A program made the translations under genes and the position numbers. The notes beneath the pieces were generated by a model that saw only the letters and a list, made by a program, of their open reading frames with translations, had not been told where the DNA came from and did no database searches. Positions 2,621-29,401 of a stretch of 36,947 nucleotides of DNA are shown in pieces. This DNA comes from a virus (lineage: Duplodnaviria; Heunggongvirae; Uroviricota; Caudoviricetes): IMG/VR virus record IMGVR_UViG_2728369181_000010; one strand, 5' to 3'. Positions within the stretch are counted from its first letter, which is position 1; each line of letters starts with the position of its first letter.

Positions 2621-2733
2621 AACTGAAGTTGCCCTGAAAATGAAATTTTTTTGCACAACCGCAGAACTTTTCCGCAGGGCATCAGTCTTAATTAGTGCCA
2701 CTGCTTTTCTTTGATGTCCCCATTTTGTGGAGC

Positions 2734-2776
2734 CCATCAACCCCGCCATTTCGGTTCAAGGTTGATGGGTTTTTTG
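2734..2776 (+). terminator. Rho-independent terminator downstream of ybjL
   Basis: 10-bp stem cccatcaacc / ggttgatggg (2734-2743, 2760-2769) followed by TTTTTT at 2770-2775. Confidence 0.6.
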
Positions 2777-2855
2777 TTGCCTGAAATTTATGCCTTTTAA
2801 AATCATGATGTTAGAAGCACTGTTTTTTAACGATGGCGACAAAATGGCGGCAGCG

Positions 2856-3074
2856 TCAAAGAGAGAGCGCCACCTGTCCTGATTTCATTGGATGCGGCTG
2901 AACTGGATTCGACTCTTTTGGTGTTGCAATCGAACGAACAAAAGTTTCATGGGTAACAAAAGTATGGCTGCAGTTAATGTTCTGGCACTGGTTATAACGC
3001 TCTTTGGTCAATGAAGATACCTGAAAACTGCTGCGAGTATGGGCGGCACTTCCACACAGTGGGCAAATCATCAT
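2856..3074 (-). CDS. ogr: Ogr/B-family zinc-finger late-gene transcription activator
   Basis: 72-aa product from ATG at 3074; CPLC...CQNINC zinc-finger pattern like P2 Ogr / 186 B; lies immediately downstream of gene D as in P2. ORF-track start at 3107 is over-extended. Confidence 0.85.
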   Translation of the reverse strand: MMICPLCGSAAHTRSSFQVSSLTKERYNQCQNINCSHTFVTHETFVRSIATPKESNPVQPHPMKSGQVALSL

Positions 3075-4747: not shown

Positions 4748-7700
4748 GCGTCGTATCCCCCCTGATCGCTGTAGTTACTCCTGGCTTTTGCCTTCAGCCT
4801 GCGTTCACGTTCATCAAGCTGGCGGGCCACCTCCCGCGCAATATCCTGCGCACTTTGTCCTGGCTGCGTCTGAATGATGATCTGCGTCGGTGCCTCAAGC
4901 CGTTGAACGGGCGGCACAGTGGCGGCAGGACTCACCATCGCTTCGCCGCCTTTCGCGGGAAGTGCCAAAGGATGTAACGGTGGAAGCTCTGCAGGTGCGG
5001 CAGCAACGCCCATCATTCCGGCAACAACGGCAGCCAGTGCAGCGGTATTTCTCCGGCTGGTCACATTTGCCGGGCCGTTAACAATTTCCGGCCNNNNNNN
5101 NNNNNNNNNNNNNNNNNNNNNNNNNNNNNNNNNNNNNNNNNNNNNNNNTTCACCGACGATGCCAAACTGCCCGCGCGGGATATAGCCGCCGCTGTCATAC
5201 ATCCCCGCAAAGCCATATCCCCATGACGGAAAACCACCCGATGGCATCATCACTTTACCGTCAGCATTCACCGTCGCAGGTTGCTGACGCGTCACGCTTT
5301 CCGGCAGTTTCGCCTTTGCAGCCTCTTTACTGACAATGCCGAGTTTATCCAGCAACCAGGAAACGCCGGATTTCAGGGAGTCCAGCGGATGCATGACCAT
5401 ATTCAGCCCTTCCGCCAGAGCCTCCCCGAATCGTCGCCCCATTGCCGCTGCGCTCTGCAGTTCGGCAGAGGTCGACTTAACGGGCGTCAGCAGATCAGTA
5501 AACCAGCCCCACAACGCCTGCACTTTGTCGCCAATCCACTGAAACACAGGCTTAAGTGGTTCGAATGCTGCACTGATGGGACCTGCCGCCGCTTTGAATC
5601 CTTCCACCACACCAGCGAGAAATGCGGTGATGGGTTGCCAGTATTTCCAGACAACCAGCGCCACGCCCGCCAGTGCAGTAACCACAAGACCTATCGGACT
5701 GAGCAGAGCACCTAACAGACCAGATATGGCATACAGGGCAACGCGCAGCATCGCCAGCGGACCGGATGCCAGTACTCGCAGCACCGCGCCTGCGGCAGCC
5801 AGTCCACCTCGTAGTGCTGCCAGTGGATTCATAAACATCACAGCAACAGCACGTAAACCGGATAATCCAGACCGCAACAGTGCAACCGGCACACCTGCTA
5901 CAGTTTTCAGGACATTCCCCGTCAGTGATGCCGTGCGGCGCAAAGACGACAACGGCGCAGTAAGTAAACCCGCTGCGTTGCCCGATGAAGCAAGCCCGCG
6001 TCGCAGCAGTGCCAGTGGAGCGCCAGCTAACCAGGACAACGCGCTGCTGGTTCGTGTTACTGCTGCCGTAACGGAAGGTAACGTTTTGATACCCAGCACA
6101 GAGAATCCCAGACGGATCACTGCCAGCGGCCCCAGCACTGCAGCCAGCGCCACCGCTAAGGTGCCGAGGCTTACGGTAACCGCAGCCACAACAGCCGCTA
6201 CTTTCATCAGTGTGCCTGTCAGTTCTGGGTTAGCTTCCACCCAGCGGCGCAACGCCCCCGTGATGCTTTTCACCGTGTACAGAATATCCATCAGCGGCTG
6301 GCGCAGCGTTTCGCCCAGGCTGCTGAAGGTGTTCTGCGCTCCGGTTTTGACCAGCAACCACTGAGCAGAAAGTGAGTCTTTGTTGATGTCGGATTCTTTC
6401 TGCATGGAACCGAGCGCATCATTGCCCGCTGTCAGTTTTAGCTGGCGCTGCAGTTCCGGCAGGTTGTTTGCCAGTTTCGCCGCGTCATCACCAAACTCTT
6501 TACCAAACAACATGGTCATGGCAGACAGACGCTTGTCCTGCGGCAGTGCGTTCACCTTCTCCAGCACACGCTGGATAGTTCCCATCGCATCCTTCGTCAT
6601 CTGCTTTTCAATCACTTCAGGATTGAGTTTCAGCAGATTCATCCCTTCAAAGAAACTCTTGCTTTGCATGGTGGCAATGGACAATTCACGCACCATCGCG
6701 TTTGCTGCACTGGCTGCAACCTCCGGCGCAGCGCCCAGTGTCAGAAAGGTGGAACCCAGTGCCGCCGCTTTACGATAATCCAGACGGTCAGCCACACCGC
6801 CCAGACGTTGCATCACATCAATGATGTCCGCCCCTTTCGACATGGCGTTATCATCCAGATAGTTCAGCGCATCGCCGAGCTGTTCAATATTGCGGGTAGG
6901 TATTTTGTAGAGCTGGGCGATTTTCCCCAGACTTTCTGACAGTTCATCCGCTGGCAGCTCAAAGGCTGTTGCCGCCTTTGCTGCCGTACTGGCGAAGGCC
7001 AGCAGGTCACGTTTCTGGTCTTCCCAGCTGTCGTCAGGGTTTGCGACGTTCATGCGCGCACCACCTTCAACCAGTGCAGCGAAGTCCACCGCACCGTTTT
7101 CCATCGGCAACTGTTCGCTGGCAGCCTTGATGGCATCCTGCATTTCATAAAAACGTGCAGTGCGGTTGCCATTATCGTCACGCAGACCATTGACCTGCTT
7201 TGCCACACCTTTCATGGCATCTTCCATGCTGGTATAGCTTTTTACTGCCGCCATCACTGGCGCACCCATTGCCAGCCCTGCAGCCGTGGTAGTGGCTCCG
7301 GCTCCTGCAATACGGTCGCGCACCTCCAGCGAACGGGCATAACTGGCACGCGCCGCATTCATCCTGCGCTGAGCTTCACCCAGTCGCTTCAGCCGCGCCT
7401 CCTGTTTCGACAATTCCTGGTTATAACGTGATGTTTCACGGGCTAAACGGGCAGTTGCTCCCGCATCATCTTTCGCAGAAATTCCCGCCCGGTACAGTTC
7501 TGCACGCACAAGCGCCGTTTGCTTCTGCAAATATTTTTGTTGTTCTTCCAGGCGTTGGACTGCCAGCGTTTGCCGACCTAAAGCCACAAGGTGCCGTTGT
7601 GATGGTTGTTCCATCGCCTCCAGCTCAGAGCTAAGCAAATTAGCCTTCTGTCTGGCATAGTTCAGCCTGTCGCCTAACTTCTTGTTATCGGCCTGCAGCT

Positions 7701-10053: not shown

Positions 10054-10195
10054 AGTGGCGAACCTCCTGATTGGATTAGGCTTCGCCCTATGTTGAAGTG
10101 ATTGTGCCTGACAAACAGCTAAGCGCAGTTGTACCGTTATTCATACAAAATGACGGTATTTGTCTGCTTGCAGGGATAATCAACATAATGCTGAT

Positions 10196-10768
10196 TCAGG
10201 GGGATTCATTGCTCTTATTTGCCGGAAATTTTCTATAAATTGTGGAAACACCCACATCAAAAATCAGTGCAATACGCTGTCTTGATTCTCCGGCCTCGAG
10301 TAAACGTCCAATCTGTGCCCACTGTTCGGTGGTCAACTTAGGACGGCGTCCACCTACTCTGCCTTTAGCACGAGCTGCAGCCAGCCCCGCCCTGGTACGT
10401 TCAACTATCAGTTCGCGTTCCATTTCAGCCAGGGCACCCATGACATGAAAAAAGAAACGGCCCATTGGGGTACTGGTATCAATACTGTCAGTCAGGCTTC
10501 GGAAATTCACACCACGCTGGCGCAACTCTTCTATCAGCGTAACAAGATGCCGCATACTGCGCCCCAACCTGTCCAGCTTCCAGACAACCAGCGTGTCTCC
10601 TGCCAATAGTGTCCTGAGCAGTTTTTTAAGCCCCGGTCTGTCGGACTTAGTGCCACTGATTTTGTCCTCAAAAATCCGCTCACATCCCGCGCAGTTCAGC
10701 GCATTACGTTGCAAATCGGGGTTCTGGTCATTTGTTGACACGCGTACATAGCCAATAAGCATGATCAT
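10196..10768 (-). CDS. Serine-recombinase DNA invertase (Hin/Gin/Cin/Pin family)
   Basis: 190-aa ORF; N-terminus MLIGYVRVSTNDQNPDLQ with catalytic Ser motif and C-terminal HTH, closely resembling Gin/Hin; adjacent to the invertible tail-fibre segment. Confidence 0.9.
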   Translation of the reverse strand: MIMLIGYVRVSTNDQNPDLQRNALNCAGCERIFEDKISGTKSDRPGLKKLLRTLLAGDTLVVWKLDRLGRSMRHLVTLIEELRQRGVNFRSLTDSIDTSTPMGRFFFHVMGALAEMERELIVERTRAGLAAARAKGRVGGRRPKLTTEQWAQIGRLLEAGESRQRIALIFDVGVSTIYRKFPANKSNESP

Positions 10769-12357: not shown

Positions 12358-13911
12358 TTACCGTCCAATGATTAACGCTGAGACGCTGGTATCTGAAGGA
12401 AAGGCTGCATTCAGTGGTTTGTCGACTTTGAACACAATCGTATTATTCCCCCTGACAGCGGCAAAAGAACAAACCGCAGTCGCGTATGAACCTGTAATAT
12501 TACTGGATACACCACCATAAGCTGTTGTTGATACCAGAGGGATAACGCCCAGTACCTTATTAGGAAATACAAAGGGCAATGTGGCTGTGGCAATATAAGA
12601 CTTATTAGAACCTGTGATGGCATAAGCATTATCAGTCATTCCATTCATCGCCACTGGGCCGCTTATACTTACAGTAACCATCTGTATGATTAGCCCGTCA
12701 GGTTGACGAATCACAAAATTTCCATTGCCACCAGTAACCGTCCAGAAAGACATATCAGGGATTTGGTTTTCCCCGTTGCCCACATTCCGTTTTGCCGCTT
12801 CTCCCAAACCAAGGTATATGAGAAGACCAGCTACATCCTTTCCACTCAAATTAGTCAGCGTATTGTCCAGCGGTTGTTTACCTGCCAGCGCATTAAGCAT
12901 TGTCGTGGCAAAGTTCGGGTCATTCCCCAGCGCTGCCGCCAGTTCGTTCAGTGTATCCAGTGCCGCAGGTGCAGAACCCACCATTGCCGCAATTGCCGAT
13001 TTCACAAAAGCCGTGGTGGCAATCTGTGTATTGTTGACCGACTGTGCCGCAGTAGGTGCGGTTGGCGTTCCGATGAGTGCCGGACTCGACAGCGGCGCTT
13101 TCAGTGCCAGCGCATTGTTAATGGTGGTACTGAATTTCGGATCATTGTTAATGGCTGCGGCTATTTCTTTCAGCGTGTCCAGCGTGGCTGGCGCACCATT
13201 AATAAGAGCCGTCAGAGCCGCCTGAACAAACGNNNNNNNNNNNNNNNNNNNNNNNNNNNNNNNNNNNNNNNNNNNNNNNNNNNNGGTGGTCGCAATCTGC
13301 GTGGTGTTATTCCCTGCGGCTGGCGTTGGCGCTTTGGGTGTCCCGGTAAACGTCGGACTTTCTTTGAGTGCATACTGTGAATGCGGGTCCGGTGCGGCAA
13401 GATGTTTTGCCATCTGATCATCCGCGTACACCTTCAGCTCCAGTGCCTTGTCATCCACATACTTGCGGGTTGCCAGCACTACGGCAGGGTCGATTTTCAG
13501 GGTGATATTGTCCGTGCTGCTGGTAATCAGCACCATGCGCACGGTCTGAGTGCGCCCGCTACCTTCAGCCAGTTGCGGCTTATAGCTTTCCGGGCAGTTG
13601 CCCACGGCAATCAATGCCCCGGACTCATCAAACAAGCCCACTTCACGTATCCACCAACCGCCCTCGTTTTCAGGGATCACCTGTTCGGCAATAATCTGGC
13701 TGCTGTTCTGCGGGTCGATATAGAGCATATTCAGCGCAGCCCGGCGTTTCTCATTTACCAGTGCAGTCTGCTTTGAGTCTGGCGTTGGCAATACTCCGCC
13801 GCCATCGCCGACCGCCATATGGGTAATTTTTAGCGGCACACCGAGCGCGGCGGCGCTGGCAAGTTTCGCCGCGCCAATATCCGTCAGCAGGGTATAAAAT
13901 TTTGTGCTCAT
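12358..13911 (-). CDS. H: Tail fibre protein H (constant N-terminal part plus invertible C-terminal tip)
   Basis: 517-aa ORF, ATG at 13911; Ala/Thr-rich repeats typical of fibre shafts; crossover site at 12798-12812 lies in-frame (YLGLGEAAK); interrupted by N-run 13233-13284. Confidence 0.85.
   Translation of the reverse strand: MSTKFYTLLTDIGAAKLASAAALGVPLKITHMAVGDGGGVLPTPDSKQTALVNEKRRAALNMLYIDPQNSSQIIAEQVIPENEGGWWIREVGLFDESGALIAVGNCPESYKPQLAEGSGRTQTVRMVLITSSTDNITLKIDPAVVLATRKYVDDKALELKVYADDQMAKHLAAPDPHSQYALKESPTFTGTPKAPTPAAGNNTTQIATTXXXXXXXXXXXXXXXXXXFVQAALTALINGAPATLDTLKEIAAAINNDPKFSTTINNALALKAPLSSPALIGTPTAPTAAQSVNNTQIATTAFVKSAIAAMVGSAPAALDTLNELAAALGNDPNFATTMLNALAGKQPLDNTLTNLSGKDVAGLLIYLGLGEAAKRNVGNGENQIPDMSFWTVTGGNGNFVIRQPDGLIIQMVTVSISGPVAMNGMTDNAYAITGSNKSYIATATLPFVFPNKVLGVIPLVSTTAYGGVSSNITGSYATAVCSFAAVRGNNTIVFKVDKPLNAAFPSDTSVSALIIGR
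12798..12812. repeat. Inversion crossover site (right inverted repeat) inside gene H
   Basis: cttctcccaaaccaa = reverse complement of 10830-10844. Confidence 0.7.
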
Positions 13912-15414: not shown

Positions 15415-15760
15415 TCTCTGCTCCTGTTGATACGGAAAGGGACACAGGCACACCGTTATTCCGCCGCCCGGTCAGCTCCACCACCATAGAACCGTCAAAG
15501 TTGCTGTTGATGGTGATGGAATCCAGCGTCAGCCGTGGCTCCCAGCGACTCAGCGCCACATACACTGCCGACATGACCTGCAGGCGTAATGCCGGATTTT
15601 GTGGCTGATCTATCAGTGCCGACAGTAGGGAACCATATTCCCGACGGGCAATGCGGCTACCCTGCGGCGTCAGCAGAATGTCCCGCACCGACTGGCGCAG
15701 ATGGTCAATATCAGTAATGACTTTGCCGCTGGTATTGTTCATCCCGCTATAAAGCGTCAT
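15401..15760 (-). CDS. W: Baseplate wedge protein W
   Basis: 119-aa ORF, ATG at 15760 preceded by GGAGG; P2 gpW-like. Confidence 0.8.
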   Translation of the reverse strand: MTLYSGMNNTSGKVITDIDHLRQSVRDILLTPQGSRIARREYGSLLSALIDQPQNPALRLQVMSAVYVALSRWEPRLTLDSITINSNFDGSMVVELTGRRNNGVPVSLSVSTGAENGSD

Positions 15761-16335
15761 ACCGGGCCTCCGGTTGTGTCGCCGCCTTTCAGGACGCCAG
15801 TATGCTGATGTGCATCAACCACAATTCCGTTAGAACTCATTGCACCGCCGCCCTGGGTAACACCACCATTGATCACTACTTCGCTGTTAATACGCGTGCG
15901 GTCAGCCTCCAGCACAAACTCACTGGTTTTCAGGGTGATGTTGTCGGCAGCCTCAATGACCATGGATTTGATGCCCCTGACATACCAGCGCCCGGTGGCG
16001 GGTTCGTATTCAAACCAGCCACCGTCAGGATGTTCTGTCACGCAGGCGTCCGCCGACGTCGAAGGTGGCGCGAACTGATTCGAATAGACAGCGGGCAACG
16101 CAAAGGCGGTTTCCAGATTGCCTCCCAGACTCAGCAGCACCACCTGCTCACCTTCCGATGGTCGCCACCATGTGCGGGCATTCCCGGCACGCAGCGTCAG
16201 CCAACTGATCCAGTTTGTTTCAAGGTCGCCCGTTTTCACCCGGCAAAGCCAGTTCTCCCGGTCCACTTCGGTAACTACACCTGTGCGGATCAGGTTGGTG
16301 ATAAGGCGCATGATTTCGGTTAATTGTGCGTTCAT
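15757..16335 (-). CDS. V: Baseplate spike protein V
   Basis: 192 aa from ATG at 16335 (MNAQLTEIMRLITN...); ORF-track start at 16578 is an upstream extension into AT-rich moron DNA. Confidence 0.8.
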   Translation of the reverse strand: MNAQLTEIMRLITNLIRTGVVTEVDRENWLCRVKTGDLETNWISWLTLRAGNARTWWRPSEGEQVVLLSLGGNLETAFALPAVYSNQFAPPSTSADACVTEHPDGGWFEYEPATGRWYVRGIKSMVIEAADNITLKTSEFVLEADRTRINSEVVINGGVTQGGGAMSSNGIVVDAHQHTGVLKGGDTTGGPV

Positions 16336-16438
16336 AGATATATGATGACAGATGAAAATTTGTTTATAACTTCTTGCAAATTGTGGTATCGATGGTACAA
16401 ATTGACAAAAGGATAAAAAACAACCAATAGGTGGATAA

Positions 16439-17245
16439 ATGAGTGTTATGAATCCAATAAGTTCTAATATATTTAATGCTGAATTTTTAAACACCCCGGC
16501 AGCGGCACTTGCCGCATGGATTTCCATTATTGGAGCTGTTATAACTTTGGTGACGATAGTTATAAGAGCACTATTCAAATATAGAAAATCTCATGATGTA
16601 ATTTTGAAAAAATCAGGAATACCTGCGTTTATATTAAATTTCTTTCTTATAAAAATATCATTAAAAAGGCTGCCTACTATCACATGGGCTGAAAAATCAT
16701 TCACGGTTCTATTTTCGCTTCTTTTTTTGTGTGCAATTTATCTTTTTGGTCCAGTTTTCATCCAAGCCATTAGAACCCCACCAAATAGCACATTGCTTTA
16801 TTGGATAAAGTCCGGTGAATCATTTTATATGTCAAAAAAAATGGCGACTGCAGCTACAATATTAACCACTCCTGATTGGGAAATATCAAAGGATGATTGC
16901 GAAGAGTCATCCTCTGCCAGTACAGAGAAGTACAAATCATTAACTATCGAACATAAAGAAATTCTTTGTAAACTACTAACCACTGATGAAGGGAATGCTT
17001 ACATTGATGAAGAAGTCAAGAATTTCGTTAAAGACAAATTTTTTATCTATTCCTTTGCCCCAACAACTATATTTATTCTATTATGGATTTCTTTGGGTTT
17101 TATACTGACCATTCACTATTCTAAAAAAGTTAGGAAATATATTCTAACTGAACAAAAAAATGCAATTCATTGGGCATATGGTGAATTCAAGACAGAAGGA
17201 ATCTATTCAATATATCAAGAGTTAGAACATAAGACTCGCCATTAA
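16439..17245 (+). CDS. Hypothetical three-TM membrane protein (cargo in the V-S moron slot)
   Basis: 268-aa ORF, ATG at 16439 with AGGTGG 4 nt upstream; strongly AT-rich versus flanking phage genes; three hydrophobic segments and an acidic soluble region; opposite strand to all neighbouring tail genes. Confidence 0.6.
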   Translation: MSVMNPISSNIFNAEFLNTPAAALAAWISIIGAVITLVTIVIRALFKYRKSHDVILKKSGIPAFILNFFLIKISLKRLPTITWAEKSFTVLFSLLFLCAIYLFGPVFIQAIRTPPNSTLLYWIKSGESFYMSKKMATAATILTTPDWEISKDDCEESSSASTEKYKSLTIEHKEILCKLLTTDEGNAYIDEEVKNFVKDKFFIYSFAPTTIFILLWISLGFILTIHYSKKVRKYILTEQKNAIHWAYGEFKTEGIYSIYQELEHKTRH

Positions 17246-17633
17246 GACCCAGCAGGCGGCGCTCTGCGTAACGGACCTCCGGTCCTTTGCGACTGACGCG
17301 ATCACGCAGGCCGTAATGGTGAACACGGGCAATACGCTGCACCTTGCCTTCAAACTGTACGCTGGCAGAGTCGGCGCTGGCGGCAGTTTTCAGGTATTTT
17401 GTGGTGCGCAGCTTTGCAAACATCTGACGTTTGATGCGGCCTTTTTTGCTGCGTGCTGTTACCCTGCGCGGTTCATAACTGCTGCCATCTGGATTGCACT
17501 GCATCCTGATATTCTGCTGCTGTGTCCGGCGCAGTTCCTGCGCCAGCTGGCGCATCATGCGGCTTCTCGTGGCTGGTTCCAGATTCGCCAGCAAGGCACT
17601 CAGCCAGTCGTCCACCTTCTGCAGTTCAGCCAC
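17187..17633 (-). CDS. S: Tail completion protein S
   Basis: 148-aa ORF (GTG start at 17633), P2 gpS-like; 3' end overlaps convergently with the cargo ORF by 59 bp. Confidence 0.75.
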   Translation of the reverse strand: MAELQKVDDWLSALLANLEPATRSRMMRQLAQELRRTQQQNIRMQCNPDGSSYEPRRVTARSKKGRIKRQMFAKLRTTKYLKTAASADSASVQFEGKVQRIARVHHYGLRDRVSRKGPEVRYAERRLLGLNGESYVLTLDILNRFLLS

Positions 17634-18560: not shown

Positions 18561-18621
18561 AACCAGCANNNNNNNNNNNNNNNNNNNNNNNNNNNNNNNN
18601 NNNNNNNNNNNNNNNNNCGGT

Positions 18622-23038: not shown

Positions 23039-23180
23039 GAGCCGTGCTCCGTTAGAAAAAACTTACTGGAGCCTTATGGTTGCGGTGATGGGGGCAGTGA
23101 AACAATGCGCGGTATTTGTACCGACAACCACACAAACCGCAGGCGGGGAAAGCCTTCATTCAAGGCTGTAGGTTTGTGCC

Positions 23181-24903
23181 ATGAACACCACACTGACACC
23201 CGCAGATCTCGATCCCCGTCGGCAGGCCATGCTGCTGTACTTTCAGGGATACCGCGTAGCCCGCATTGCTGAAATGCTGGGCGAGAAAGTTGCAACCGTT
23301 CACAGCTGGAAAAAACGCGACAAGTGGGGTGACTATGGGCCGCTGGATCAGATGCAGCTCACCACCGCCGCACGCTACTGCCAGCTCATTATGAAGGAGC
23401 ACAAAGAAGGGAAAGATTTCAAAGAGATTGACCTGCTGGCGCGCCAGTCTGAGCGCCACGCGCGGATCGGCAAGTTTAACAATGGCGGCAACGAAGCCGA
23501 CTTAAACCCTAACGTCGCCAACCGCAATAAAGGCCCACGCCGTCAGCCGGAAAAGAATGTTTTCACCGATGAGCAGATTGAGAAGCTGGAAGAAATCTTC
23601 CATTCCTCCATGTTCAACTACCAGCGCCACTGGTGGGAAGCCGGAAAAACCAACCGCATCCGCAACCTGCTGAAGTCTCGCCAGATCGGCGCGACATTTT
23701 ACTTTGCCCGTGAAGCCCTGATTGACGCCCTGCAGACCGGGCGTAACCAGATTTTCCTTTCTGCCAGCAAGGCTCAGGCCCACGTCTTTAAGCAGTACAT
23801 CATCGACTTCGCCAAAGAAGTGGAGGTGGAGCTGAAAGGCGATCCGATGGTGCTTCCTAACGGGGCCACGCTTTACTTCCTCGGCACCAATGCCCGCACG
23901 GCCCAGAGTTATCACGGCAACCTGTATCTGGATGAATATTTCTGGATACCGAAATTTCAGGAGCTACGCAAAGTGGCTTCCGGTATGGCTATTCACAAGA
24001 AATGGCGGCAGACCTATTTTTCCACACCATCCAGTCTGACCCACAGTGCTTATCCGTTCTGGTCCGGTGCACTGTTCAACCGTGGGCGCAACAAAGCTGA
24101 CAAGGTGGACATCGACCTGTCCCACAGCAATCTGGCCCCCGGCCTGCTGTGCGCAGACGGGCAATACCGCCAGATAGTCACCGTGGAAGATGCGGTGCGC
24201 GGCGGCTGTAACCTGTTCGACCTCGACCAGTTGCGCATGGAGTACAGCCCGGACGAATACCAGAACCTGCTGATGTGTGAGTTCGTGGACGATCTCGCGT
24301 CCGTGTTCCCGCTCAGCGAGCTGCAGGCGTGCATGGTGGACAGCTGGGAAGTCTGGACCGACTTTCATGCACTGGCGCTGCGCCCGTTTGGCTGGCGCGA
24401 AGTGTGGATCGGTTATGACCCGGCAAAAGGTACGCAGAACGGCGACAGTGCCGGATGCGTGGTGGTGGCTCCGCCAGCCGTGCCGGGGGGTAAGTTNNNN
24501 NNNNNNNNNNNNNNNNNNNNNNNNNNNNNNNNNNNNNNNNNNNNNNNNNNNNNNNNNNNNNNNNNNNNNNNNNNNNNNNNNNNNNNNNAACGTGAAAGCG
24601 TTCTTTCCTGCCGTCCGGGAGTTTGTCTATAACCCCAATGTTAAAAATGCTCTGGTACTCAAGGCCTACGACATTATCAGCCACCGCCGTCTGGAGTTTG
24701 ACGCCGGGCACACCGACATTGCGCAGTCATTCATGGCAATCCGTCGCGCCACCACCGCCAGCGGCAACCGCCCGACCTATGAAGCCAGCCGCAGCGAAGA
24801 AGCCAGCCATGCCGATCTGGCCTGGGCAACAATGCACGCACTGTTTAACGAACCACTGCAGGGCGAGTCCGCCAATACCAGTAATATTGTGGAGATTTTT
24901 TGA
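23181..24903 (+). CDS. P: Terminase large (ATPase) subunit P
   Basis: ATG at 23181; divergent from O as in P2; reading frame interrupted by N-run 24497-24588 and resumes in the ORF ending with TGA at 24901-24903. Confidence 0.85.
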
Positions 24904-29258: not shown

Positions 29259-29401
29259 TATATAATAATCTTACTGATGTAAAACGTTTTTTTACNNNNN
29301 NNNNNNNNNNNNNNNNNNNNNNNNNNNNNNNNNNNNNNNNNNNNGTTCATCAGCCTGATATGCCTGGTATTATTAAGAGCACGAATTGTTAACCCGCGTA
29401 A

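Follow-up and report, generated by a model that had tools for sequence, protein, structure and literature searches.

Phage P2 takes up foreign genes at three sites, one of which is the orf30 region (PMC3091744; PMC6823313), and a comparative study from 2010 still gave the function of orf30 as unknown (PMC3091744). Orf30 of P2 (NP_046770.1) is encoded between the tail genes V and S, runs opposite to the late genes, and adjoins the activator site of the V promoter; an activator-binding site is annotated between Orf30 and V in the P2 record, and the transcription start of V is the first base of V. The same slot is occupied by a gene of the DUF6216 family (DUF, domain of unknown function) in a prophage carried on IMG/VR record IMGVR_UViG_2728369181_000010, the whole 36,947-nt stretch of which is referred to as the window. 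The prophage is a complete 186/P2-like element integrated beside ybjL and rybB, with genes for a CI repressor and Ogr and for tail, head, and lysis functions; its far end falls outside the window. The cargo gene, a 268-amino-acid (aa) open reading frame (ORF), belongs to an exchangeable AT-rich cassette, and its retention after the decay of the surrounding prophage is the most informative result of this analysis. The slot had already been recognized in a preliminary description made from the DNA letters alone, which pointed to the position of orf30 in P2 and to an ORF running against all surrounding tail genes; both observations held, with the ORF on the plus strand and every gene around it, V and S included, on the minus strand (Table 1).

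The limits of the cassette were mapped against a cargo-free relative (L001, CP019275) with flanks 97.5% identical to those of the window. Divergence from this relative begins two bases past the V start codon at 16338 and ends at 17246, directly after the Gly129 codon of S, and 909 bp are present in the window where the relative has a 126-bp spacer between V and S. The preliminary description had placed the beginning at 16336, which is indeed the first base after the V start codon, but divergence from the relatives sets in at 16338. The guanine-plus-cytosine (GC) content is 0.322 inside the cassette versus 0.576 and 0.575 in its two flanks, in keeping with the AT richness relative to V and S noted at the outset; along the profile, values of 0.29–0.36 extend over 16300–17200 and values of 0.52–0.61 are found on both sides. 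As 32%-GC DNA, the cassette is likely a target of H-NS. No RNA family was found in the cassette with Rfam, and a simple terminator scan found none between S and the cargo gene convergent with it.

At their 3' ends, the cargo ORF and S share 59 bp (17187–17245), exactly as first described. Because the divergence from the cargo-free relative ends right after the Gly129 codon, the 19 C-terminal residues of S are encoded by the cassette. The final 57 nt of S have a GC content of 0.33 versus 0.58 for the rest of the gene, and the 19 residues they encode are unlike those of the relative. Every cargo type examined, comprising DUF6216, TIR, FRG, and hypothetical proteins of 271, 145, and 176 aa, brings its own AT-rich S tail of 18–21 codons with a GC content of 0.21–0.35, which follows a conserved LLG (RRLLG or RKLLG). 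The S tail of a Buttiauxella DUF6216 cassette, the protein of which is 47% identical, was similar to that of the window. An AT-rich insertion providing the C-terminus of S, as had been suggested, is thus borne out. The cassette is a unit exchangeable by recombination within V and S, and it consists of one DUF6216 gene, the late-promoter region of V, and a cassette-specific C-terminus of S.

The C-terminal 18–21 residues of S were found to be polymorphic and to travel with the cargo type (S of L001, L002, L012–L017, L022, L023, and the window). The variable tails share an amphipathic pattern (..D/E.. I/L L .. W/F/Y L ..). Judging from these sequences, S evidently tolerates many different C-terminal tails.

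To survey the slot, the cargo-free flanks were searched against all complete E. coli genomes, which gave 1061 records, and 60 evenly spaced matches among these were inspected. The slot was empty (uninterrupted) in about 31 of the 60, was filled by DUF6216 in 6, and held another single-gene cargo in 11; the match was split or partial in the remaining cases (about 12). The alternative cargo genes all have a GC content of 0.33–0.37. One encodes a protein with a TIR domain, for which PADLOC gave weak matches to PDC-S66, SpbK, and ThsB, and another encodes an FRG-domain protein matching the PADLOC candidate PDC-S15 at 8.5e-32. Several relatives, L001 among them, carry an empty 126-bp segment between flanks that are 94–97.5% identical to those of the window, and the slot is also empty in sequenced phages of the clade such as Klebsiella phage KP12. 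Since the slot is empty in about half of the otherwise near-identical prophages and in KP12, the cargo gene is dispensable, and these data support its assignment as a non-essential prophage moron in the P2 orf30 slot.

The DUF6216 family is confined to Enterobacterales and is rare. A set of 5.8 billion proteins yielded 32 clusters at 90% identity, an exhaustive profile search of 1.84 billion proteins yielded 48 representatives, and, with patterns of the close family, no more than 5 loci turned up in 185,579 species-representative genomes. Of 5426 complete E. coli genomes, 111 carry the cassette, always between V and S; E. coli B and its derivatives are among them, the E. coli B copy being identical at 260 of 268 residues. 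In 19 IMG/VR contigs, the gene is always plus-oriented and adjoins V and/or S of P2-like elements. A Tatumella member of 296 aa with 19% identity occupies the same slot in the same orientation and overlaps S too. Because members as distant as this are found there, DUF6216 is an old resident of the V-S slot, and sequence comparison indicates that it is exchanged among prophages by recombination in the V and S flanks rather than placed by a one-off insertion. The moron designation of the preliminary description therefore stands, with boundaries now set by comparison of the V-S junctions, but the notion of a single insertion does not, as the family is old in the slot. The E. coli B copy lies in the V-S slot of a defective P2-like prophage with tail and head deletions (L023, NZ_CP115178; 18922–20970).

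The gene was repeatedly found intact in prophages that have decayed around it. Full-length copies of the ORF lie beside ybjL in Citrobacter youngae, C. sedlakii, Scandinavium, and a metagenome-assembled genome (MAG), where V, S, and R are fragmentary or lost. The Klebsiella aerogenes copy is directly adjacent to an IS3 element that removed V, and three internally deleted prophages (L030, L039, L042) still hold the gene. In Franconibacter, Cedecea, and another MAG, all phage genes are gone and the cargo gene stands alone between ybjL and the TetR-family gene that flanks the attachment site; the Franconibacter cluster comprises 24 members from at least two named species. In addition, a Winslowiella member resides at another chromosomal site, and a Pectobacterium member is located in a MobA/TraD island, close to a gene with a SIR2 domain. 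Intact copies of the ORF were seen at more than 35 of the loci examined. The ratio of nonsynonymous to synonymous substitution rates (dN/dS) was 0.11–0.34 between copies, including those of decayed-prophage loci, in pairs with dS up to saturation, showing that the cargo gene is under purifying selection. Since it remains intact under such selection while the prophage decays, the gene is functional and probably of use to the host without the phage.

A DUF6216-bearing remnant in Scandinavium sp. SGZ-S8 (L007/L021; about 4800–9900 of L007) also contains a CI-type repressor, a GIY-YIG protein, and a 662-aa AAA_15/AAA_21 ATPase. The AAA_15/AAA_21 combination is typical of defence ATPases.

The preliminary description had recognized no motif in the product, which is its one factual statement on the gene that does not hold, as the protein matches Pfam DUF6216 (PF19723) with 49.1 bits against a gathering threshold of 27.3 (E 5.9e-13). 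The alignment is partial, with residues 71–237 placed on model positions 113–265 of 270, and the N-terminal third of the protein differs from the model. RefSeq assigns the name DUF6216 family protein to the near-identical E. coli proteins WP_022645427.1 and WP_000115390.1, PF19723 is carried by 31 of 32 homologue matches in precomputed annotation, and NCBI gives the same family name to the distant members with a source name (Cedecea, Franconibacter, Pectobacterium, Tatumella, Winslowiella). NCBIfam returned no informative match for the window protein. No paper naming the WP accessions or PF19723 was found in the literature, where DUF6216 is mentioned in an unrelated wastewater metagenome study. 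A clear match to a known structural protein had been named initially as an observation that would speak against a membrane-protein moron; no similarity to a virion structural protein was found in the Pfam, PHROGs, PDB sequence, or fold searches. The Pfam family Phage_holin_2_3 (HP1-family holins) aligned below threshold with the first hydrophobic segment (E 0.032, 14.7 bits versus a cut-off of 28.8). Identity as a holin was rejected, as the matches were sub-threshold and limited to this segment and the prophage already has an HP1-type holin.

Based on Kyte-Doolittle hydropathy (19-residue window, 1.6 or more), three hydrophobic segments were located at about residues 20–46, 87–111, and 203–226, and a fourth, shorter stretch at 61–76 stays below the threshold. 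Residues 112–201 are soluble and net acidic (16 D/E versus 12 K/R), which agrees with the three hydrophobic segments and the acidic region originally noted. The numbers of K/R residues are 0 in the N-terminal tail, 9 in the loop 47–86, and 8 in the C-terminal tail, which starts with KKVRK. Because this distribution fits the positive-inside rule, an N-out, C-in topology is predicted, with a first transmembrane segment (TM1) at about 20–46, a basic cytoplasmic loop, TM2 at about 87–111, a periplasmic region at 112–201, TM3 at about 203–226, and a cytoplasmic tail at 227–262. The product is accordingly described as a predicted three-pass inner-membrane protein.

An AlphaFold2 model built from a 25-sequence alignment had a mean predicted local distance difference test (pLDDT) value of 73.6, with 85–93 in most core blocks. 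In the model, TM2 is followed by four short strands, then by two helices that each bear a Cys, and lastly by a long helix that extends into TM3. Among 43 members with identities as low as 15%, only C154 and C177 are invariant; they probably form a periplasmic disulfide that would hold a beta-plus-helix domain of about 90 aa. Conservation is strongest in the cytoplasmic tail 227–262, where 16 of 36 positions are invariant in the close set; 46 columns are invariant among 25 sequences that are 50–92% identical to the window protein.

V and the cargo gene are separated by 103 bp that hold both predicted promoters. The ribosome-binding site judged good in the preliminary description is GGTGG, 5–9 nt upstream of the ATG; its GG is invariant in the upstream alignment. 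A candidate sigma-70 promoter of the cargo gene was proposed from conservation, as CTTCTTGCAA and TGGTACAAATT are invariant or nearly so in the upstream alignment of 7 loci, V-less remnants included. The layout of a TTGCAA-like -35, N16, and TGnTAxxAA also precedes the lone chromosomal copies in Cedecea, Franconibacter, and a MAG. The leftward promoter of the V operon probably has its Ogr/B late-activator site in a TGT-N12-ACA dyad whose distance from the V ATG is 46 nt in the window as well as in L001 and phage Cartapus; the activator site annotated in P2 is at the matching position. The dyad overlaps the spacer and the -10 of the candidate cargo promoter. In 3 remnants without V, the left half TGT of the dyad has decayed to TAT, and the right half is fixed. 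With the activator dyad sitting inside the predicted cargo promoter, late activation of V and expression of the cargo gene would therefore probably be mutually exclusive. The window contains 8 occurrences of TGT-N12-ACA versus 9.4 expected by chance, and since the number matches chance expectation, only the positions of the dyads are meaningful. Three of the 7 others lie near other late-operon starts (10130–10147, 23117–23134, and 23175–23192, at the sheath operon and the divergent capsid and terminase operons) and would fit Ogr/B-type late promoters.

From this anatomy and the history of the gene we infer, tentatively, a lysogen-expressed envelope protein that benefits the host, most likely through superinfection exclusion. 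Superinfection exclusion is ranked first in view of the architecture of the protein, its autonomy as a single gene, the kinds of cargo found in the same slot, and the persistence of the gene after domestication. The cargo gene would be transcribed in the lysogen from its own predicted sigma-70 promoter (TTGCAA-N16-TGgTACAAA), and genome entry of incoming phages would then be hindered either by the domain exposed to the periplasm or by the conserved tail in complex with a partner in the host inner membrane, so that phages would be excluded without killing the cell. Circumstantial signs of a defence role, whether by exclusion or by abortive infection (Abi), are the TIR and FRG (PDC-S15) candidates that share the slot and the keeping of the gene after prophage decay. 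A wider proposal, which is speculative and doubtful as a whole, is that DUF6216, perhaps with P2 Orf30 as a very distant relative, represents an unrecognized family of single-gene, three-pass inner-membrane anti-phage proteins acting by exclusion or envelope-level defence. Such a family would be native to the V-S slot of P2-like phages, would be switched by the late-activator site inside its promoter, and would have been repeatedly domesticated by enterobacterial hosts as the last gene of decayed prophages.

Several results weigh against superinfection exclusion. PADLOC-DB v2 returned 0 families for the window protein at E up to 10, and the positive controls worked, with the FRG cargo assigned to PDC-S15 and the OLD-like gene of the window to Old. 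In PHROGs, the best match had an E of 0.27 (a holin, TM1 only); in Pfam, DUF6216 alone exceeded the threshold, and no known exclusion or defence family did so. A sequence-profile search of PDB gave no match, and Foldseek comparison of the model with PDB and BFVD gave E values of 0.37 or worse. The proposed sigma-70 site was missed by a simple consensus promoter scan, the cargo gene was found by tblastn in 0 of 50,697 deposited phage genomes, and the family is rare. Moreover, the gene has long been fixed at a single locus in the Franconibacter species, which is unusual for defence genes, since these normally turn over fast, and would suit a housekeeping-like envelope role equally well. Finally, the cytoplasmic tail and not the periplasmic domain is the most conserved part, which is not expected of a recognizer of diverse phages.

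The last two points lead to a serious rival, namely that the protein is a host-fitness factor unrelated to phages, engaged in membrane or periplasmic physiology such as stress tolerance, transport, colicin or antimicrobial resistance, or colonization, and that a lysogenic-conversion gene was later domesticated. The Franconibacter fixation and the tail-dominated conservation fit this explanation at least as well as exclusion. The gene is kept as a lone copy also in Cedecea, Winslowiella, and MAGs, it is under purifying selection, the conservation of the cytoplasmic tail suggests a conserved host partner, and no defence library matches it. However, the family is rare and patchy in its distribution (the 5 loci and 48 representatives given above), most copies sit in prophages, and candidate defence genes share the slot in sister prophages. 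A host-fitness role is considered possible, if rather unlikely.

RexB-type and other Abi effectors consisting of a single membrane protein kill or arrest the infected cell. By analogy, the cargo protein could sense infection at the envelope and depolarize or permeabilize the inner membrane, perhaps via oligomerized TM helices, so that the cell is killed or arrested. A lone gene for a three-helix membrane protein, in a slot where a TIR protein and a PADLOC candidate occur as well, would be in line with this, and AT-rich DNA that is likely silenced by H-NS would suit a toxic gene. It also counts for an Abi effector that, according to Rousset et al. 2022 (PMC9122126), transmembrane proteins of known anti-phage systems are believed to be suicide effectors. 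Yet the protein has no sensor or enzymatic domain and no partner gene, it bears no similarity to Abi families in PADLOC or Pfam, and a strongly toxic product is hard to reconcile with the stable fixation of a lone gene whose conserved promoter looks constitutive. An Abi effector is thus regarded as improbable.

Still less probable is an accessory role in the phage lifecycle, whether antiholin-like timing of lysis, protection against readsorption to lysed cells, or assembly of the tail or baseplate at the membrane. The gene lies among tail and lysis genes, TM1 weakly resembles HP1-family holins below threshold, and the cassette encodes the C-terminus of S as well. Against such a role, the slot is empty in about half of the near-identical prophages and in KP12, the gene is on the strand opposite to the late operons, where a late activator bound at its site would occlude the predicted promoter, and the gene outlives all phage genes as a lone gene. 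The prophage also encodes its own HP1-type holin, lysozyme, and spanins. Only the absence of functional annotation and the naming of the family as a DUF could speak for a spurious ORF in AT-rich filler DNA acquired by horizontal transfer. This reading is effectively refuted by a chance of about 4e-10 for 268 stop-free codons at the base composition of the segment, the dN/dS of 0.11–0.34, the 46 invariant columns, the core pLDDT of 85–93, and the more than 35 loci with an intact ORF.

If the protein blocks phages, a function would be gained for a DUF family and perhaps for P2 orf30 too, and the V-S slot would join the defence hotspots of P2-like phages. E. coli B and BL21, which are widely used for phage and protein work, would then harbour a resident phage-resistance determinant that could affect phage work there. 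The copy in E. coli B/BL21 makes the function easy to test. Whatever its function, the locus presents a case of cargo exchange followed by domestication, in which part of an essential tail gene and the late-promoter region of V travel in the unit, the predicted cargo promoter and the activator site overlap, and the cargo gene is the last remnant at the ybjL site in several genera.

Table 1. Features of the V-S locus and of other parts of the window
Feature	Coordinates	Strand	Basis
Variable AT-rich cargo cassette, 909 bp, GC 0.322	16338–17246		Junctions versus L001 (CP019275) and composition profile
DUF6216-family coding sequence, 268 aa, ATG start	16439–17245	+	ORF list; Pfam PF19723
Shine-Dalgarno-like GGTGG (5–9 nt upstream; 4 nt before ATG)	16430–16434	+	GGAGG in most relatives
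Candidate sigma-70 promoter (predicted): TTGCAA (16374–16379), 16-nt spacer, extended -10-like TGgTACAAA (16393–16401)	16374–16401	+	Conservation
TGT-N12-ACA dyad, probable Ogr/B late-activator site of leftward V-operon promoter	16382–16399		Pattern match
Cassette-encoded C-terminus of S, LNGESYVLTLDILNRFLLS plus stop	17187–17246	-	Antisense to last 19 codons of DUF6216 gene
Baseplate spike gene V (192 aa), conserved left flank	15757–16335	-	Pfam Phage_base_V and Apex
Tail-completion gene S, whole	17187–17633	-	Pfam Phage_tail_S, E 4.7e-40
Conserved part of S (residues 1–129), right flank	17247–17633	-	L001 homology resumes at 17247
RybB small RNA gene	2700–2778	+	Rfam RF00110, 105 bits
Prophage ogr	2859–3074	-	
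Serine recombinase	10196–10768	-	Resolvase and HTH_7
Region resembling an invertible host-range segment	10196–12355		
OLD-family nuclease, 566 aa	25968–27668	-	AAA_15/AAA_21 ATPase and OLD-like TOPRIM domains; PADLOC Old match 1.5e-20
ORF of 243 aa	27977–28708	-	No family match

The start codon of V was set by comparison with the 579-bp V genes of two relatives (L001 and L002). An extended reading of V (273 aa, 15757–16578, TTG start) was rejected as an artefact, the start at 16335 being conserved in relatives. The rybB gene sits between ybjL and ogr, and hence this end of the prophage, with its attachment site, directly adjoins rybB on the 3' side. A second accessory hotspot lies between the portal gene Q and a replication gene, where the window carries the OLD-family nuclease with the 243-aa ORF as its neighbour. 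In the near-identical prophage of STEC1587, the Q-A site is filled instead by a STAS-like gene and a hypothetical gene, and in the E. coli B prophage (L023), it holds a retron with a St85-family reverse transcriptase and an effector. The serine recombinase gene adjoins oppositely oriented genes for a tail-fibre tip (Collar domain) and tail-fibre assembly, and this region looks like an invertible host-range segment. Five masked runs of N of 49–92 bases (5094–5148, 13233–13284, 18569–18617, 24497–24588, and 29296–29344) break the tape-measure, tail-fibre, lysis, terminase, and another gene, and ORF calls are unreliable there.

Among described proteins, P2 Orf30 is the nearest in setting. It has 261 aa versus 268 aa for the window protein, its gene is non-essential and has a GC content of 0.34, and its three TM-like segments at 4–31, 106–132, and 219–241 are at positions equivalent to those of the window protein. 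An AlphaFold2 model of Orf30 (pLDDT 72) shows the same order between TM2 and TM3, with four strands, a short helix with a Cys, a helix with a second Cys, and a long helix into TM3, and both cysteines of the two proteins align in hhalign. Direct similarity is weak (BLASTP E 0.083; hhalign probability 17.7%, P 0.0014, 52 columns), and the hidden Markov model of Orf30 scored at most 12.4 bits on DUF6216 members, with 7.0 bits in the reverse search versus 7.4 for shuffled controls. Orf30 has no Pfam match. In contrast to the window protein, Orf30 contains a much larger helical region between TM1 and TM2, and its gene does not overlap S, a terminator being present between Orf30 and S in P2 unlike in the window. 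Based on these alignments and models, common ancestry of DUF6216 and P2 Orf30 is possible but unproven. The comparison gives no mechanism, because Orf30 itself has no assigned function.

P22 SieA, HK97 gp15, and T4 Imm are small, multi-pass inner-membrane superinfection-exclusion proteins encoded by single genes of prophages or phages; lysogens or infected cells express them, and the phages can grow without them. The likeness of the window protein to this class lies in general architecture and genomic logic alone; the Pfam, PHROGs, and fold searches gave no sequence or fold similarity to exclusion families, the three named proteins not having been compared one by one.

The accessory hotspots of P2-like phages, namely the old/tin (TO) region, Z/fun, and the orf30 region, have in common with the window an AT-rich, non-essential cargo that is polymorphic in presence, lies between core genes, and is exchanged. 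Recent hotspot surveys (PMC9122126, PMC13586616, bioRxiv 10.1101/2024.10.15.618418), in the portions covered, describe other sites and do not mention orf30, gpV, or gpS. The V-S slot takes single genes only. The slot, the family name, and the concept were already known, and the cargo gene is not a new kind of element. What is unusual for the V-S slot is that its exchange unit includes the late-promoter region of V and the 3' end of an essential tail gene.

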